54,122 nucleotides of DNA, taken from positions 1 to 54,122 of the forward strand of contig MFNV01000009.1 of assembly GCA_001782165.1 (NCBI GenBank), written 5' to 3'. The translations under genes were made by a program, and so were the position numbers. Origin of the DNA: Candidatus Levybacteria bacterium RIFCSPHIGHO2_01_FULL_41_15. GTDB taxonomy: Bacteria; Patescibacteriota; Microgenomatia; Levybacterales; UBA12049. This document shows positions 3,894-12,100 of the stretch, piece after piece (the stretch's first letter is position 1; the number at the start of each line of letters is the position of its first letter). The notes below the pieces were generated by a model. The model searched no databases and was not told where the DNA came from. It saw only the letters and a list, made by a program, of their open reading frames with translations.

Positions 3894-6038
3894 TTACTGC
3901 GCGGATACCCTTCCGGTAAAGGTCGACTTGGCAAGCATTTGTTCTACAATATTTTTTGGAACTTCCTCATAATGAGATGGCTCCATGTAATATGATGCGC
4001 GTCCCTGAGACATACTACGCAAGGTTGTTGCATAACCAGATAATTCTGCCAAAGGAACCATTGCCAGAACAATAGTCGCCCTTGCTCTTTCCTCGGTTCC
4101 CAGAATCTGCGCTCTTTTTGCGGACAGATCTCCAATAACATCTCCCATAAATTCTGAGGGCGTTGTTACTTCAACTTTCATAATCGGCTCCAAAAGTGTA
4201 AGCCCTGCCTTTTTGGCTGCCGCCTGAAGCGCCTGGCTTGCGGCAATTTTAAAGGCTATATCTGAAGAATCAACTTCATGATAACTTCCGTCATAAACTG
4301 CAACTTTCATATCAACCATAGGATACCCTAATAAAACTCCGTTCTCCATGGATTCCCTAATACCTTTCTCTACAGATGTAATAAACTCTTTAGGGATTGC
4401 TCCACCTTTTATCGCATCTACAAATTCATAACCCTCTCCCCGAGGCTTTGGTTCAAGACGAAGAAAACAATGGCCGTATTGACCCCGTCCTCCAGATTGA
4501 CGAATATATTTTCCTTCAGCTTGAGTTTCTTTCGTTATTGTTTCTTTATAGGCAACTTGGGGCGCTCCAACATTTGCCAGAACTCCAAACTCTCTTTTCA
4601 TTCGGTCCACCATAATTTCAAGCTGAAGCTCTCCGATTCCCGAAATAATTGTTTGTCCTGTCTCATGATTTGTTTTTATCACAAACGTTGGATCTTCTTC
4701 GGAAAGTCTCTTAAGAGCAAAGCCAAGTTTTTCTTGATCGACTTTGGTCTTTGGCTCAATGGCAAGAGAGATAACAGGTTCCGGGAAAGAAATCTTTTCA
4801 AGAACAATTGGTTTTTTCTCATCACATAGAGTATCTCCCGTTGCCGTATCCTTAATACCGACAAGCGCTACTATTTCTCCTGCAAATGCCTCTTTTATCT
4901 CCTCTCTTGTATTTGCGTGCATAAGAAGAATTCGGCCGACTCTTTCCGTAATATTTTTTGTACTATTATATGTATAAGAACCCGATGTTATTTTTCCCGA
5001 GTAAACTCTAACGTAGGTGAGTTTCCCCACATGAGGATCGATCTGGATCTTAAAGGCAAGACCTGAAAAATGCTCTTCAGGCACAAGTTTTCTAACCTCA
5101 TCTCCATTGGTCTTGGGATTTATGCCATGAACCTCCTTAAGATCAAGAGGGGAAGGAAGAAAGTCCACAACAGCATCAAGAAGGGGTTGAACCCCTTTGT
5201 TCCTAAGAGAGGATCCCGCATAAATTGGAACCAGTTTGTAGTCAATAACTGCCTGTCTTAATGCTCTTCTCAACTCATCCACTGAAGGCTCTTCCCCTCC
5301 CAGGTATTTTTCCAAAAGCTTATCATCTGTTTCTGCAATTTTTTCTATAAGCTTATGGCGGTACTGCTCGGCTTGCTTTTTGAGATCTTCCGGAATTTCA
5401 TCGGATATCTCGAATTTCGCGCCAAGTTGATCCGATCCCCAAATATAAGATTTTCTACTTAAAAGGTCAACTATCCCTTTAAATGTTTGTTCGACTCCGA
5501 TGGGCAAAACCATAATCGCAGGATTTGCACCAAGCCTGTCCTCTATACTTTTGACTGTTGCAAGAAAATCAGCGCCTAACTTGTCCATTTTGTTGATAAA
5601 ACAAATTCTCGGAACTTTATATTTATCCGCCTGTCTCCAAACAGTTTCTGACTGAGATTGAACTCCTTCCTCCGCATCAAGAACTGTTATACCGCCGTCA
5701 AGAACACGAAGAGATCTTTCGACTTCTGCTGTAAAATCAACATGGCCCGGTGTATCTATAATATTTATCCGATAAGGGTCCTCTCGCCCCGCGGAGCTTT
5801 GCGAAGTGTGGGTCCAATAAGTAGTTGTTGCGGCAGAAACAATAGTGATACCGCGCTCTTTCTCCTGCGCCATCCAATCCATTTGAGTAGTTCCCGCATC
5901 GATATCTCCGATTTTGTATGTTTTTCCAGTATAAAAGAGAATACGCTCGGTCGTGGTGGTTTTACCCGCGTCAATATGAGCAATAATTCCAATATTTCTA
6001 ATTTTCTCAAGTGGTACTTGTCTTTTTGTTTCAGCCAT
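3894..6038 (-). CDS. fusA: elongation factor G
   Basis: [17 protein letters not shown] and NKMD motifs. Start placed at ATG 6038 (MAETKRQ). Confidence 0.99.
5787..5812. repeat. REP-like hairpin inserted in frame in fusA
   Basis: ccccgcggagctttgcgaagtgtggg encodes part of the extra peptide [12 protein letters not shown] before [11 protein letters not shown]. Confidence 0.55.
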
Positions 6039-6047
6039 AACATAAAA

Positions 6048-6146
6048 AAATTCCAAATCTCAAGCACCAAATCCCAAATAATTTTCTAATTTTCAAAATT
6101 CGAATTTTGAATTTATTTAGAATTTAGGATTTTGGATTTAGAATTT
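6048..6146. repeat. heptamer-period inverted repeat element in the fusA 5' region
   Basis: aaattcc-aaatctc-aagcacc-aaatccc-aaataat ... gaattta-ggatttt-ggattta-gaattt. Confidence 0.8.
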
Positions 6147-6155
6147 ACTATTTGT

Positions 6156-6184
6156 AGTATACCATATTTTCGAAGCTCTGACCA
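6156..6184 (-). promoter_or_regulatory. probable fusA promoter
   Basis: TGGTCA-17 nt-TATACT. Confidence 0.5.
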
Positions 6185-6189
6185 TATAC

Positions 6190-6837
6190 TTAGCGAGGAC
6201 CGAAAATTGTAGCAAAGCGGTTGTCGGGAAGTTTTCTGGATTTTGATTTTCTGTGTGAAAAATAATCAGATGATTCGAAAGTGCAAATTCTTGGATTATA
6301 AATATTTTTCTTTAAAACTTTTAGCCTAGTTAATTCTTTTTCAACTTTTTCCCAAAGATCGATTTCATAATGACATGGTCCAATTGATGGACCAATATTA
6401 ACAACGAGATTTTTGGGATTAATATTAAACTTTTTCTTTAAAGCTTCAATTGTACTCTTGACAATCTTTTTAAGATTGTGTCTTGACACATGAATAAGTC
6501 CAATGGTTTTAGTCTTGGGATCATAAACTGCAATAGGTAAACAGTCTGCTGTTAAAATACTCAAATAAACCTCTTCTCTATTTGAAACTGCCGCATCTGC
6601 TTTTATAACAGTCTTTGTATCTTTTGCACCTCTTCCTAAATCTTTTATTGTTACTGAATAAACTTTATCTTTATGCTGAAGATATAAAACTACAAAATTG
6701 TCTAAATTTAATCCAAATTTTTCTGCAATTTTTTTTCTATTTTTTAATGCTTCTTTTTCTCCCTTAAAGAAAGACATATTCCCATCACCTACTTTTGTCG
6801 TTAGTAAAACTAATGCTGAAAAATCCTCGATTTTCAT
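6190..6837 (-). CDS. pgeF: PgeF/YfiH laccase-domain purine nucleoside phosphorylase family protein
   Basis: TADCLPI, GPSIGPCHYE, ICTFES and FSHR motifs. Confidence 0.9.
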   Translation of the reverse strand: MKIEDFSALVLLTTKVGDGNMSFFKGEKEALKNRKKIAEKFGLNLDNFVVLYLQHKDKVYSVTIKDLGRGAKDTKTVIKADAAVSNREEVYLSILTADCLPIAVYDPKTKTIGLIHVSRHNLKKIVKSTIEALKKKFNINPKNLVVNIGPSIGPCHYEIDLWEKVEKELTRLKVLKKNIYNPRICTFESSDYFSHRKSKSRKLPDNRFATIFGPR

Positions 6838-6877
6838 CCCAGAGATTATATCAAAAGTTAAGTGCTATAATTGTTTT

Positions 6878-7330
6878 ATGAAATTAAAGAAATTGATTAA
6901 GGATTATCTTGAAGAGGCAAAGTTGATGCAACTCTCAACTTGCGTTGATAATCAGCCGTGGGTCTGTCATGTTTGGTTTGCTGCTGATGAAAATTTAAAT
7001 ATTTACTGGTTTTCCTCAACTACAAGGCGGCATTCAAGAGAAGTAATGAAAAATCCAAAAGTTTCTGCTGCAATCGTTCTCCCTCACACTCCGGAAGATA
7101 TTCCGAGAGGACTACAGCTTGAGGGAGATGCGCAGCTTCTTACCGATGAGAAAGATATTCAAAAAGCAAGATCTGTTTATGAAGGACGAATATTTTCAAA
7201 AAAAGTGGTTAATGATTTAATAAAGTCCAAAGACTCACCTCATAAGTTTTATAAAATTAAACCAAGAGCATTTGTACTTTTCGATCTGGTAAACTTCCCG
7301 GAAAATCCCCGACAAGAATTAGAATTCTAA
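6878..7330 (+). CDS. pyridoxamine 5'-phosphate oxidase-like split-barrel protein (YhbP-like)
   Basis: MQLSTCVDNQPWVCHVWF...SSTTRRHS...NPKVS...GLQLEG. Start ATG 6878 follows TATAAT. Confidence 0.85.
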   Translation: MKLKKLIKDYLEEAKLMQLSTCVDNQPWVCHVWFAADENLNIYWFSSTTRRHSREVMKNPKVSAAIVLPHTPEDIPRGLQLEGDAQLLTDEKDIQKARSVYEGRIFSKKVVNDLIKSKDSPHKFYKIKPRAFVLFDLVNFPENPRQELEF

Positions 7331-7331
7331 A

Positions 7332-7361
7332 TTACCACCTGAAGTGGGCGAAGGCGCGGTT
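7332..7361 (-). repeat. diverged duplicate of the rpsG 3' end
   Basis: Encodes NRAFAHFRW* versus rpsG NKAFAHFRW* (8033-8062); 23/30 nt identical. Confidence 0.9.
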
Positions 7362-7392
7362 GACTCTCCAAATTTTTCCTCATGCAAAACTA

Positions 7393-7421
7393 TTGACAGA
7401 CTATAAATCTCTCGTTATGAT
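7393..7421 (+). promoter_or_regulatory. sigma70 promoter of the TrpR-like gene
   Basis: TTGACA (7393-7398), 17 nt, TATGAT (7416-7421). Confidence 0.8.
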
Positions 7422-7449
7422 AAGTCTAATAATCTAAATCATTAGACTT
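7422..7449. repeat. 28-bp palindromic site, copy 1 (operator or dif-like site)
   Basis: AAGTCTAATAA-TCTAAA-TCATTAGACTT. Confidence 0.9.
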
Positions 7450-7456
7450 AATAAAT

Positions 7457-7897
7457 ATGTCTCAGGTTTCGAGAAGAACACTCTCAAAAAACGTGGAAAA
7501 GAAAATGTATTCTATCTTTTTTAATGCATTGGCTCGATTATCAAACCCTTCAGATATTCAAGATTTTATTCTGGATCTTTTAGGACCAGCTGAACAAACA
7601 ATGCTAGCAAAAAGACTTGCAATCGCTGTTCTTCTGGTAAAAGGTTATCAGTATGAAACCATTAAAGATATTCTTAAAGTTTCACAGGAAACTATTGCGA
7701 GAGTAAATATGATGCTCAATTTTAGAGGTAAGGGATACAATATTGCGATTAAAAGAGTGCTTCGAGAGGAAAAGTTAGAAGATTTATTTAAAGTAATCGG
7801 AGATTCAGCCGTTGGAATTCTTCTTGAATCATCTATAAAAAGGTCTCTTAGACGAGAAAGAAAAAGAACAAGGAAACCCAAAACTGCCTTGGGATAA
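7457..7897 (+). CDS. TrpR-like (YerC/YecD-related) helix-turn-helix protein
   Basis: DFILDLLGPAEQTMLAKRLAIAVLL...YETIKDILKVSQETIARV matches the Trp-repressor-like pattern. Confidence 0.88.
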   Translation: MSQVSRRTLSKNVEKKMYSIFFNALARLSNPSDIQDFILDLLGPAEQTMLAKRLAIAVLLVKGYQYETIKDILKVSQETIARVNMMLNFRGKGYNIAIKRVLREEKLEDLFKVIGDSAVGILLESSIKRSLRRERKRTRKPKTALG

Positions 7898-7900
7898 GTT

Positions 7901-7928
7901 TAGTCTAATAATCTAAATTATTAGACTT
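7901..7928. repeat. 28-bp palindromic site, copy 2 (direct repeat of 7422-7449)
   Basis: TAGTCTAATAA-TCTAAA-TTATTAGACTT; 26/28 identical to copy 1; 3 nt after the stop codon. Confidence 0.9.
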
Positions 7929-8032
7929 TATATCGCTATTTATCTACTCAATACCCTTCTAAAAATTCTTCTATCTTTTCTTGTATTTATTAAGTACTAT
8001 GACAGATTGGATTTAAGAAAATACTTTGTGGC

Positions 8033-8506
8033 TTACCACCTGAAATGAGCGAAAGCTTTATTTGCTTCTGCCATTCTGTGGACAACGTCTCTTTTTTTAA
8101 TTGCTTCTCCTTTGTTTTCTAAGGCATCCAGAAATTCTGCTGCAAGTTTTTCAGAAAATGTATGATAGTCTTTGTTGGACCTTCTGCGTGCCGCCTGTAT
8201 AAGCCACCTTATTGCAAGCGATGTTCGTCTGTCCCCTCTTACTTCAACAGGTATCTGATAAGATGCTCCACCCACTCTTCTTGCCTTAACTTCCTGTCTA
8301 GGTTCAATATTTGAGAGCGCTTTTTCAAAAACCTCAAGAGCATCTTCCCCCTGTTTTGAGATGTTTTCCAAAGCATTATAAAAGACTTTCTGAGCAACGG
8401 TCTTTTTTCCATCGCGCATCAAGTTGTTTATGAACTTCGTTGCGAGTTTGCTTCTGTAAATCTTGTCCGGCTCAGCTTGTCTTTTCCCTGCTTTCTTATG
8501 TCTCAT
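8033..8506 (-). CDS. rpsG: 30S ribosomal protein S7
   Basis: GKKTVAQK, RRVGGASYQIPVEV and MAEANKAFAHFRW motifs. Start set at ATG 8506. Confidence 0.99.
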   Translation of the reverse strand: MRHKKAGKRQAEPDKIYRSKLATKFINNLMRDGKKTVAQKVFYNALENISKQGEDALEVFEKALSNIEPRQEVKARRVGGASYQIPVEVRGDRRTSLAIRWLIQAARRRSNKDYHTFSEKLAAEFLDALENKGEAIKKRDVVHRMAEANKAFAHFRW

Positions 8507-8509
8507 CAA

Positions 8510-8598
8510 ATTAAATTAAAAATTAAAAATTAAAAATAAAATTTGAAATATATTCTTTTTTATTTTTGATATGTATTTTTTATATTTTATACTTTATT
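8510..8598. repeat. AT-rich heptamer-period inverted repeat between rpsL and rpsG
   Basis: aaattaa-aaattaa-aaattaa-aaataaa ... tattttt, tatattt-tatactt. Confidence 0.6.
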
Positions 8599-9072
8599 TT
8601 ATCCTGCGGTTTCCGCTGGCGCCTCTGCCGTAGTCTGGGCTTCTGCGGTCGGTTTAGGCGCTGCCTCTCCTCGCTTTGTTCCGTACTTGCTTCTTGCCGT
8701 CTTCCTTCCTTCAACTCCTGCAAGATCAAACTTGCCTCTTACAATATGGTATTTAACACCCGGCAAATCTTTAACTCTTCCTCCCCGCACCAAAACAATT
8801 CCATGTTCTGAAAGCGCATGTCCAATTCCTTGAATATAAGCAGTTACTTCCATTTTGTTTGAAAGCTTAACTCTTGCAACCTTTCGAAGAGCAGAATTAG
8901 GCTTTCTAGGAGTCATTGTTTTAACAAGAGTCACTACCCCTCTTTTTTGAGGAGCTGTTATTGATTTGTAAACCTGGTCTTTGGAATTAAATATTCTTCG
9001 TAGTGCTGTTGACCTGGTTTTTTTAACTTTGCTCTTTCTTCCTTTTCTTGAAAGCTGTGATAAGGTAGGCAT
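8599..9072 (-). CDS. rpsL: 30S ribosomal protein S12 with C-terminal Ala/Glu-rich extension
   Basis: [10 protein letters not shown] and [12 protein letters not shown] motifs. Confidence 0.99.
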
Positions 9073-9088
9073 CGTTTTAAATTTTTTA

Positions 9089-9165
9089 ATTACTAATTTC
9101 TAATTGACCTAAAATTTAGAAATTAGATCAATTAGGTTAATCAGGTTAATTAGGTTAATTGAAGT
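9089..9165. repeat. hairpin plus 9-bp-period tandem repeat between rpoC and rpsL
   Basis: ctaatttctaa...ttagaaattag stem; aattagatc-aattaggtt-aatcaggtt-aattaggtt-aattgaagt. Confidence 0.7.
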
Positions 9166-9169
9166 AGTA

Positions 9170-12100
9170 TTATACATTATCTGCGGAAGGTTGTTCAACT
9201 CCAATTTTATCGGGGTCAACCCCCGTTTGAGGAGGAAAGGGTTCGAAAGATCCCATCTCAAAATCGGTGGAGACTGAATCTGGGGCAACAGGAATCAGTC
9301 TTCCAATAATAACGTTTTCCTTAAGACCCATAAGCCTATCCTCCTGTCCCTGTAAAACAGCCTCTGTAAGAACCTTAGTCGTTTCCTGGAATGATGCTGC
9401 AGAAAGCCAGGAATCCGAGAAAAGTGATGATTTAGTAATCCCAAGAAGAATTTGTCTCGCAGTTGCAGGCTCCCCTCCCTGAGAAAGTGTTTCTGCATTT
9501 ATCTCCTCAAACTTAACTTTTGTTATGAAATCTCCGGGAATAAGAGAAGTGTCTCCGACTGTTTCAATTACCACCTTATCTGACATTTTTCGCAATATTA
9601 CCTCAAAATGTTTATCGTTAATTTCAATACCTTGAAATTCGTAAACTCTCTGAGCTTCTGCGATTATGTACCTTTGAGCGTCAATAATTCCCCTTATTTT
9701 CAGAATGTCTTTTGGATCAAGGTATCCCTGGGCAAGCTGAGACCCTGAGGAGATTGCATCACCGTCTTCTACTGTCAGCTCAGATGCCAAAGGGATAAAA
9801 TATTCTCTCTCTTCAGGAGGTTTAGTTCTTGGATTTCGAACTTTAACAATATATCCGTCCTCTGTTTTTTCGATCTTTATCTTTCCTGCAATATCAGACA
9901 TGGGAGAAAGATTCTTGGGGGTTCTCATTTCAAAAAGCTCCTCAACTCGGGGTAACCCTTGGGTAACATCGGACATTACTACCCCCCCAAAATGTCTTAC
10001 TCTCATGGTTAGCTGAGTCCCGGGTTCTCCAATTGACTGCGCCGCGATAACCCCCACGGGAACCCCTATTTTTACTTTTCTCTTGGTTGAAAAATCCCAA
10101 CCATAACAGGAGGCACATACCCCATATTCTATCTTGCAGATAAGAGGAGACCTTAAGTATACCTCTTCGATGTCACCGGACGAAACAAGATGAGCTTTCT
10201 CCTCATTAAGCTCCCCGCCTTCTTTAACAATTACTTTTTTGTTTTTTTTAGAAACTATATTTGATGCTGCAATTCTTCCCAATATTCTGTCATAAAAGGT
10301 TGCTCTTCTATCAGGCTCCTCTTTTAATACTGCGATTCCGTCTTTTGTTCCGCAATCTTCGCCTCTTATGATAACATCATGAGCAACATCAACCAACCTT
10401 CGCGTAAGATAACCGGCATTTGCAGTCTTTAAAGCAGAATCTGTCAGACCTTTTCTTGAACCCCGCGCACTTGCTACATATTCAAAAATTGATAATCCTT
10501 CCCTGAAGTTCGATTTAATTGGTAACTCAACTATTTTCCCTAGTGGATCTAGGATTAGACCTCTTATTGCAGACAGCTGCTTAACTTGCTCTTTACCTGC
10601 CCTAGCGCCTTCTGAATCAATAATTACCTTGATAGGGTTTTCGGATCTTAAGGAAGCCCAGGTTTTATCCGCAAGTTCATCAGTGATTGCAAGCCATACA
10701 TCATTCTCAAGTCTTTTTCTTTCATCATTTGTAATAAGGCCCTGCTGGTATTCAATCTCAATTTCTTTAATTTTCCTTTCGGCGTCCTGGATGCTTTTAT
10801 CTTTTCCTTCCACCATTTGATTATCAAATACCGAAACTGAAACACCTGATATTGTTGCTCCATAGAATCCGAGAGTCTTTATATTGTCTATAAGTTTCTC
10901 AACTTCCTCCGGGGAATAATTTGCTATAGCATGTGTTACTATTTTTTTGATGCCCGATGCTTTTACGGGGTTGTTTATAAATTCTAAAGTTTTAGGAAGT
11001 TTTTCGTTAAACATTATTCTTCCCACCGTTGTTTCGGTAATTTTGCCATCTATTCTGACTTTTATGGGTTCTCTGAATTTTATTTTGAACAAAGAATGGG
11101 CAAGAATAGCCTCATCTGGTGATCCAAAAACAGACTGAGAATCATTCCTTAAGGTTTCATCAAGACTTGTAAGATAGAATATTCCAACCGCCATTTCTTT
11201 GTTTGGAAGAGTTATGGGACTTCCATCGGCGGGTTTTAAAAGATTGTGCCTTGGCATCATCAGATTCACTGCTTCTTCCTTGGCCATGTTGGACAAAGGT
11301 ATATGAACTGCCATTTGATCTCCGTCAAAATCAGCATTGTAACCGGCACACACGCATGGATGAAGGCTTATTGCTGATCCCTCTATAAGTACCGGGTAGA
11401 AAGCCTGAATTCCCAATTTATGTAAAGTTGGTGCGCGGTTTAAAAGAACTGGATGATTTTTGGTAATTTCCTCAAGAATATCAAATACCTCAGGGGGTCT
11501 TTTTTCAATAAACCTTTTTGCTGATTTTATATTTGGGGCATATCCTCTTACAATTACTTCGCGCAAAACAAAAGGCTTAAACATTTCAAGAGCCATCTCT
11601 TTAGGAAGGCCGCATTCAGAAAGATCAAGTTCTGGACCAACGACAATAACAGATCTTCCTGAATAATCCACTCTTTTACCTAGGAGGTTTTGCCTAAATC
11701 TTCCCTGTTTTCCCCTAAGCATGTCTGATAGTGATCTTAAAGGAGAGGCTACTACCTGTGTTGATCTTTGGGATACATCAATCAATGCATCGACTGACTC
11801 CTGAAGCATCCTTTTTTCGTTTCGTAAGATTATTTCAGGAGCTCCAAGAATTATAAGATGCTTTAATCTGTTATTTCTGTTAATAACACGTCTATACAAA
11901 TCATTAAGATCAGATGTCGCAAATCTTCCTCCTGCAAGCTGTACCATGGGGCGAAGATCAGGCGGGAGAACAGGCAGAACTGAAATAACCATAGAGGAAG
12001 GGGAAACACCCGCCTTTCTCATTGATTCAATAAGTCTTAATCTCTTGATAAGCTTAAGATATTTCTGTCCTTTTGATTTTTCTGCTTCTTTTCGAAGTTT

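Follow-up and report, generated by a model that had tools for sequence, protein, structure and literature searches.

A TrpR/YerC-like gene between two copies of one palindrome

In the genome of Candidatus Levybacteria bacterium RIFCSPHIGHO2_01_FULL_41_15 (G000; 728 kb, 38% GC, 98.6% complete), we analysed the first 54 kb of contig C9 (54,122 nt, hereafter the window), where a gene for a TrpR/YerC-like regulator is bracketed by two copies of a palindrome. The open reading frame (ORF), on the forward strand (7457-7897), encodes a helix-turn-helix protein of 146 aa. The two palindromes, which we call O1 (7422-7449) and O2 (7901-7928), are identical at 26 of 28 positions and lie in direct orientation with their starts 479 bp apart; O1 ends 7 nt before the ATG (7457) and O2 begins 3 nt after the TAA (7895-7897). 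A sigma-70-type promoter on the same strand (7393-7421), composed of TTGACA (7393-7398), a 17-nt spacer and TATGAT (7416-7421), directly abuts O1. It scores 11/12 and is the top promoter-like match within 6000-9300, and O1 would span about +1 to +28 of the predicted transcript, where it may serve as an autorepression operator. O2 faces the convergent rpsG gene of the str gene cluster (8033-8509, reverse strand), 105 nt away, and is a putative second operator that could act as a roadblock/insulator or as a loop anchor. The palindrome pair, its spacing, the promoter and the TrpR-like ORF had been reported in a first-pass annotation made from the sequence alone, and all are borne out by our re-reading.

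The bracket at the TrpR-like gene is real and strongly non-random. Indeed, with up to three mismatches, the 26-nt core of the palindrome occurs at two places in the window, O1 and O2, with 0.00 occurrences expected (100 shuffles). The first-pass annotation had described both copies as 11-6-11 sites, the second with an exact match to the ATAA-N6-TTAT core of dif, the target of Xer recombinases. This core does exist, yet in one of the five copies found in the genome, and the 11-6-11 parse is not kept: the palindrome is better described as two arms of 11-12 nt separated by four central letters, CTAA here and CTGA or the perfectly symmetric CTAG in relatives. Contigs from the same samples (runs X1, X2, X3 and X6) carry a second variant of 7332-7930, with about 10 differences per 130-260 nt, in which an A>G change at 7431 turns O1 into a perfect palindrome, as in the related genome G041; at least two related strains therefore co-occur.

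The encoded protein matches Pfam Trp_repressor (PF01371; E 2.1e-14, 53.8 bits for a cut-off of 27) and no other Pfam family. Its score is marginally above the cut-off for YerC/YecD (TIGR02531; 42.9 versus 42.2 bits) and far under that for true TrpR (TIGR01321; 16.7 versus 67.25 bits). A profile built from 20 relatives matches the TrpR-like structures 3frw, 3kor and 3g1c with E-values of 2e-16 to 2e-14. The AlphaFold model is all-helical, with seven helices and a mean predicted local distance difference test score (pLDDT) of 75.8, falling below 50 in the C-terminal helix (residues 118-146). Its top Foldseek matches are 3kor, 3frw and 3g1c (target TM-score 0.75-0.83; E 2.5e-3 and weaker), followed by E. 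coli TrpR in the TrpR-operator complex 1tro. The protein starts with an MSQVSR motif and ends with a helix and a basic tail; it departs from the size of the canonical single-domain amino-acid sensors of the family, about 90-110 aa, and its C-terminal extension is common to a long subfamily. Given this length and extension, we file it in a distinct long subfamily and not with TrpR or HisR proper. Its closest protein clusters come from Levy-, Woese- and Roizmanbacteria, and a 95%-identical protein occupies the same locus in a metagenome-assembled genome of GenBank, Candidatus Levybacteria bacterium RIFCSPHIGHO2_01_FULL_37_33. The host is accordingly a groundwater bacterium of Microgenomates type, as the sequencing runs also indicate. 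According to a study on the family, YerC (HisR) and TrpR recognise palindromic operators of about 20 bp (PMC9413887).

Further copies of the palindrome and a second paralogue

The first-pass annotation had proposed a scan for further copies. With up to six mismatches, the palindrome occurs exactly five times, on three contigs, which adds three stand-alone copies to the bracketing pair: one 9 nt past the tyrS stop and 121 nt ahead of recG, one where a VTT-domain gene and a GDPD gene converge, between their stops, and one 56 nt upstream of lepA (gene names by Pfam). Across the own genome and G041, arm position 9 and its partner vary between purine and pyrimidine without keeping the pair, with a sense-strand A-C in 3 of 7 copies, which fits a degenerate operator position.

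The genome also encodes a paralogue (C10, 42820-43251; 27% identical) that is bracketed by an unrelated palindrome, with one copy immediately ahead of the start codon (0 nt) and the other 6 nt beyond the stop codon. Two extra copies of this second palindrome lie near promoters elsewhere, one of them beside an RHH/YafQ-like toxin-antitoxin pair. Because the two paralogues carry different palindromes, the palindrome goes with the paralogue and is not constant per genome.

Some occurrences of the own palindrome in relatives deserve mention in their own right. In G038 (C1, 20494-23519), two copies 887 bp apart surround a PIN/MazE-like toxin-antitoxin operon, one 12 nt past the toxin stop, the other 12 nt past the stop of an upstream helix-turn-helix gene and 144 nt before the antitoxin start. 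In G041 (C45, 23252-26296), a Phd-like/PIN-like toxin-antitoxin pair, named by eye from its sequence, is inserted between the palindrome plus promoter and lepA, and the first ~12 lepA codons are duplicated. The lepA promoter stretch (123 bp) is 95% identical between the own genome and G041, with flanks at about 72%. At lepA (C9, 78830-78912) and at genes in G009 and G019 (L086, L089), a TATAAT-like box lies about 7 nt ahead of the ATG with no Shine-Dalgarno sequence, which suggests that leaderless or near-leaderless mRNAs are common in these genomes.

Conservation of the bracket across Patescibacteria

Homologues of the regulator were found in 25 of 41 related genomes, frequently several per genome. 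Of the 151 genomes sampled from the class Microgenomatia, 104 encode PF01371, with up to seven copies each. Inspection of the flanks of 21 homologous ORFs revealed a palindrome 0-15 nt before the start and the same palindrome a few nt from the stop. The palindrome changes in sequence from one orthologue group to another, and its centre is 0, 2, 4 or 6 nt long.

As a bracket score we took the best ungapped match between the start region (-100 to +10) and the stop region (-15 to +100), a value of 13 or more being counted as a bracket. It was computed for 91 TrpR-family loci: the 21 homologues of related genomes, the 30 best Pfam hits in the class, and 40 others picked from the PF01371 table of the class solely by an open frame of at least 141 aa. 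Loci L021-L029 were excluded, eight as weak short matches and L026 as lacking an ORF match. The long subfamily was defined by the N-terminal motif M-x-[QRKHM]-[VILT]-S-[KRQ]. Of the motif-bearing loci, 46/58 score 13 or more, and 2/33 TrpR-family loci that lack the motif are bracketed. Neighbouring complete ORFs of the scored loci served as a control: among 140, two attain 13 and all stay below 16. No bracket was seen at short canonical YerC-like genes (85-120 aa), all 19 of which score 10 or less. The other classes of the phylum gave a bracket at 5 of 9 long loci, in a scan from which 10 of 30 loci were excluded (the own locus and nine with in-frame stops). The bracket is a conserved trait of the long TrpR/YerC-like subfamily that recurs across the phylum, as shown by the search for flanking paired palindromes at homologues that the first-pass annotation had proposed. 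A literature search (supplements not covered) found no paper describing the bracket or TrpR-like regulators of the Candidate Phyla Radiation (CPR).

The palindromes as candidate operators

Several features indicate what the palindromes may be for. Among 48 bracketed loci, 18 have a TTGAC[AT] box (-35) no more than 35 nt from the upstream copy and none has one so close to the downstream copy, which is not a duplicated promoter. In many homologues, the -10 box is inside the palindrome and the ATG 0-10 nt beyond it. Such a placement of the upstream copy, adjoining or overlapping a sigma-70-type promoter, fits autorepression. Furthermore, orthologues that are 63-65% identical (the own locus and G038; L009 and L011) retain both copies almost letter for letter, and this conservation of the primary sequence argues for sequence recognition, beyond a mere hairpin. 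Altogether, the palindromes are most likely binding sites of the bracketed protein itself and not recombination sites. Paired operators, one of the two readings put forward in the first-pass annotation, are the best supported, by the 46/58 brackets, the paralogue-specific palindromes and the promoter overlap.

The own palindrome is also dispersed in public metagenome contigs, where we collected 66 sites on 56 stretches. Nine stretches carry the TrpR-like gene (58-97% identical), the regulator adjoins rpsG in 8/8 of those with rpsG, and an rpsG with a lone palindrome was not seen among these stretches. None of the 49 stand-alone sites is inside an ORF. Grouped by flanking proteins, these sites make up 26 contexts. 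The gene arrangement is tandem in 11 of them, convergent in 8, divergent in 2, mixed in 1 and unknown in 4, for a genome background of 534 tandem, 103 convergent and 103 divergent; between tandem genes, the site is nearer to the stop of the preceding gene than to the start of the following one in 9 of 11 contexts. Relatives keep the tyrS/recG, lepA and VTT/GDPD sites even where the proteins encoded on either side are no more than 66-79% identical. Retention at this distance indicates that the stand-alone sites are under selection, pointing to a host function. Among the sites of other regulators, some overlap -10 or -35 boxes of downstream genes and others lie between convergent genes.

A number of observations weigh against reading the pair as operators with an insulating second copy. 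The bracket is absent at 12 of the 58 motif-bearing loci. The next gene is convergent in 15/45 bracketed loci and co-directional in 30/45, and O2 may often be just the operator of the neighbour: in one orthologue group (L104, L108, L117 and L128, from G062, G060, G057 and G116), the ATG of a gene for a signal-peptide (secreted) protein comes immediately after the downstream copy, which probably controls that gene. Such an explanation cannot apply to the own locus, where the neighbouring rpsG (105 nt away) is convergent. The enrichment of stand-alone sites in convergent contexts has a P of about 0.006-0.02, obtained with crude ORF calls from 21 classified contexts. In the same orthologue group, the two copies are identical at 31/31 or 32/32 positions while differing between genomes, and the identity includes a non-palindromic 3-nt block in each arm. 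These identical non-palindromic positions hint at gene conversion or duplication and not at binding selection alone, and the group as a whole suggests duplication or conversion of a promoter-operator-leader block. Among 672 mirror pairs, asymmetries common to both copies number 40 and differing ones 137, so that there is no general homogenisation, except in this one group. Helical phasing of the O1-O2 spacing at 10.5 bp was not found (R 0.09, n=48). Finally, the first-pass annotation had opposed an operator, expected to co-vary with the recognition helix, to a recombinase site, expected to be constant per genome. Constancy within a genome is contradicted, in favour of an operator, and none of 500 permutations reaches the observed co-variation of palindrome and recognition helix. 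However, the partial r is 0.19 for the recognition helix and also 0.19 for the remaining protein; the co-variation is therefore inseparable from shared descent and adds little by itself.

Alternative explanations

The first-pass annotation had also proposed that the repeats are sites of a tyrosine recombinase (Xer- or integron-type), which would make the gene an excisable cassette, re-insertable behind a resident promoter. Dif/Xer sites and integron attC are short imperfect direct palindromes flanking a gene, and the repeats here are likewise direct, with an identical centre of 4 nt. The genome holds four tyrosine recombinase genes, all outside the window, which itself has none, as had been stated. 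The palindrome pair around the toxin-antitoxin operon of G038, an indel of 53 bp that sets the VTT/GDPD site apart from that of a close relative, the fully identical copy pairs with their non-palindromic positions, and a metagenome contig (L178) in which the module and a relic of rpsG (described below) are in circularly permuted order could all speak of mobility. Nonetheless, a dif site is expected once per chromosome, with an 11-6-11 structure and a conserved core, whereas we count five copies with a 4-nt centre, four of them devoid of ATAA-N6-TTAT; it is also expected to be constant within a genome, whereas two paralogues here carry two unrelated palindromes, and the centre length depends on the group. 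Integron cassettes come with adjacent intI, attI and Pc, and with attC of 57-141 bp that have extrahelical bases and differ between neighbouring cassettes. The present sites have no adjacent integrase or attI and no attC-type extrahelical structure; they are near-perfect palindromes of 26-28 bp, near-identical on both sides of the gene. The notion of a promoterless cassette behind an external promoter fails for the family, because the -10 is often inside the palindrome. The locus is moreover stable, the gene adjoining rpsG in the eight metagenome loci as well as in G038 and G041, and the boundary of the L178 permutation is the rpsG relic, not the palindromes. A search for sequencing runs containing the locus listed 20 from DNA and none from RNA. 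The excision test that had been suggested covered 4 of these DNA runs as Logan contigs: no joint between 7422-7449 and 7901-7928 was found in them, a weak argument since contigs cannot show rare forms. A joint from 7362 to 8127 appears in 4/4 runs, with 25 letters on the short side, and is read as rpsG genes of other organisms matching the relic. An ORF upstream of the promoter in L178, which we had suspected to encode a transposase, has no Pfam or NCBIfam match. We consider a dif-, pdif- or integron-like cassette highly improbable.

Three further explanations were weighed. The palindromes might act as RNA or single-strand hairpins (terminators, stabilisers of mRNA 3' ends or REP-like elements) independently of the TrpR-like protein, the 5' copy being incidental or a 5' stabiliser. 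They do fold better than shuffles (z -2.9 to -4.6), and stand-alone copies after stop codons and between convergent genes recall REP sequences. Yet the predicted transcription start is inside O1 and the -10 is inside the palindrome in many homologues, so that the 5' hairpin cannot be in the RNA; orthologues keep the primary sequence and not pairing alone, with arm position 9 mismatched as noted above, and a hairpin gives no reason for paralogue-specific palindromes. A T-tract follows the downstream copy in 4/48 loci and the hairpins are weak (mean about -7 kcal/mol), which rules out O2 as an intrinsic terminator; the hairpin explanation in general is distinctly unlikely. In REP/RAYT systems and at IS200/IS605 ends, a gene is flanked by cognate hairpin palindromes with more copies in 3' intergenic DNA. 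A similar selfish pairing, in which dispersed palindromes depend on the flanked gene and the TrpR-like protein would be the specificity factor for a host enzyme, would account for the flanking cognate palindromes, the copies in 3' intergenic DNA, the one palindrome type per paralogue, the indel polymorphism at one site and the concerted evolution of copies in one orthologue group. The flanked gene, however, does not encode an HUH/Y1 transposase, and Trp_repressor, its sole Pfam match, leaves it without a catalytic domain. Stand-alone copies are few, three in the own genome and 0-5 per genome overall, and their conservation at orthologous places speaks for a host function. The one Y1 transposase gene of the genome is flanked by an unrelated GC-rich hairpin, and we regard REP/RAYT-like pairing as very unlikely. 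Lastly, O2 could be an auxiliary operator that loops the DNA with O1 for tighter autorepression, with no roadblock role. In 48 loci, the two identical sites are separated by 424-639 bp (median 485), and the bracketed long subfamily possesses one more helix at the C terminus, which might bridge dimers. But that helix is modelled at low confidence (see above), single 3'-end sites are conserved without a partner, and in the absence of helical phasing looping gains no support; as the sole role of O2, it seems unlikely.

The Y1_Tnp gene just mentioned is IS200-like (G000, C2, 34943-35687) and bears on both sides the GC-rich hairpin CCACCTGGGAGGTGG then CACCTAGGG. This hairpin has two copies in the whole genome, as in a classical hairpin-ended element, and is unrelated to the palindromes of the TrpR-like genes.

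Proposed mechanism and comparison with known systems

From the sequence features, family membership and conservation described above, we infer binding, repression and roadblocking in the following way. The regulator is rather probably a self-repressing dimer whose gene is bracketed by two copies of its own operator, O2 being a roadblock/insulator or a loop anchor. Bound to O1, behind the -10 and across the transcription start, the protein would repress its own promoter. Bound to O2, it would be a two-way roadblock for RNA polymerase and insulate the regulator gene and the convergent rpsG from each other: the regulator gene would be shielded from antisense read-through out of rpsL-rpsG, and rpsG from the regulator's own transcript. 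Alternatively, O1 and O2 might be the two anchors of a repression loop. The three stand-alone copies (tyrS/recG, lepA and VTT/GDPD) may constitute a small regulon or a set of boundaries. The protein would in this way mark the borders of transcription units, by blocking initiation at its own promoter and elongating polymerase at 3' ends.

A broader proposition can be made more tentatively. The long TrpR/YerC-like proteins of Patescibacteria could conceivably be sequence-specific boundary factors that stop RNA polymerase at paralogue-specific palindromes, in units that may move or duplicate as a block. The location of sites at the 3' ends of genes or within convergent gene pairs, and the presence of up to seven paralogues per genome, might be seen in this light, doubtful as it still is. 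One may speculate, by analogy with roadblock termination by mTERF and Reb1, that the family provides a terminator/insulator code specified by proteins, the gene of each being bracketed by its sites so as to be both autorepressed and insulated. Hints of a promoter-O1-gene-O2 unit that moves or duplicates as a block come from the 31/31-identical pairs and from L178 with its circular permutation.

The arrangement resembles several known systems without being identical to any of them. E. coli TrpR is an autoregulated, dimeric helix-turn-helix protein with a palindromic operator that has a CTAG-type centre and overlaps its own promoter. The Levybacteria protein belongs to the same Pfam family and fold, and its presumed operator also has a CTAG-type centre at its own promoter. 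It differs by its length (146 aa, versus about 108 aa for TrpR), with a conserved MxQVS[KR] N-terminal arm, a C-terminal helix and a basic tail, and by the second operator copy right after its stop codon, which E. coli trpR is not known to have. In phage lambda, the gene for the repressor CI lies between OL and OR, triple operators 2.4 kb apart that are joined in a protein-mediated loop by the octamerising repressor. What the two have in common is a repressor gene with an operator set on either side and the potential for a loop between these; CI is of another family, and the loci described here give no evidence of phasing or oligomerisation. The nearest named family is YerC/HisR (TIGR02531), the histidine repressor of Firmicutes. 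According to PMC9413887, HisR has 20-bp palindromic operators with a lineage-specific consensus, is shorter than 100 aa and has its sites in his promoter regions; the short YerC-like genes of the class are, as seen above, unbracketed. Finally, an article on LacI (PMC3711431) describes how the repressor bound at O3, at the 3' end of lacI, stops elongating polymerase as an autoregulatory roadblock. Here too a repressor operator would lie at the 3' end of its own gene, 3 nt past the stop and without terminator features, and we propose the same mechanism for O2. This bracket is a conserved two-site arrangement, with a convergent neighbour at the own locus; the lacI promoter, by contrast, carries no LacI operator, and O3 is part of the adjacent lac promoter.

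Genomic surroundings of the locus

Within the str gene cluster, the regulator gene lies between rpsG and fusA in antisense orientation, the order along the reverse strand being rpoC, rpsL, rpsG, the regulator (forward), a PNPOx-like gene (forward), a Cu-oxidase_4-like gene and fusA. On the promoter side, a reverse-strand relic of the last ~11 rpsG codons (NRAFAHFRW, then the stop; 7332-7367) matches the true end of rpsG (8033-8068), 701 bp away, as a diverged direct repeat of 36 nt; it is context and stands outside the operator system. The relic is common to relatives with regulators at least 79% identical and absent from more distant syntenic loci. Being confined to this clade, it is treated as a later local event, and its interpretation as an att-like repeat was rejected on the same ground. 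In L178, where the regulator is 97% identical and rpsG only 72% identical (DNA), the relic is found beyond the opposite end of the module; this order could stem from a circular or tandem intermediate, from recombination between species or from a chimeric assembly.

From fusA to the relic (6060-7330), the DNA is variable cargo: here the Cu-oxidase_4-like gene (6190-6837, reverse) and the PNPOx-like gene, a peptidase S51 gene in G041, and about 150 nt in L198. The str gene cluster is therefore interrupted in the own lineage. The PNPOx-like ORF (6698-7330, with a TTG start) overlaps the 5' end of the opposite Cu-oxidase_4-like ORF by 140 nt (6698-6837); its true start probably lies downstream, since the Pfam match spans residues 64-190. 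Between rpoC and rpsL (9121-9156), three to four 9-nt units (AATTAGRTT-like) are repeated in tandem.

Significance

Regulation in CPR/Patescibacteria is almost unstudied, and the organisms are uncultured. What is new is that a long subfamily of TrpR/YerC-like proteins shows this pairing as a conserved trait across the phylum, with sites located preferentially at the 3' ends of genes. A dif-like appearance alone is insufficient for calling a recombination site. Around 50 natural pairs of regulator and presumed binding site of one family can be read from gene-flanking DNA; this set is a resource for the recognition code of the TrpR family and for orthogonal repressor/operator parts. Since the cognate sites lie mainly at gene 3' ends, regulon prediction centred on promoters would miss them. 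If the roadblock at O2 is true, these tiny and dense genomes would separate convergent transcription units without classical terminators.

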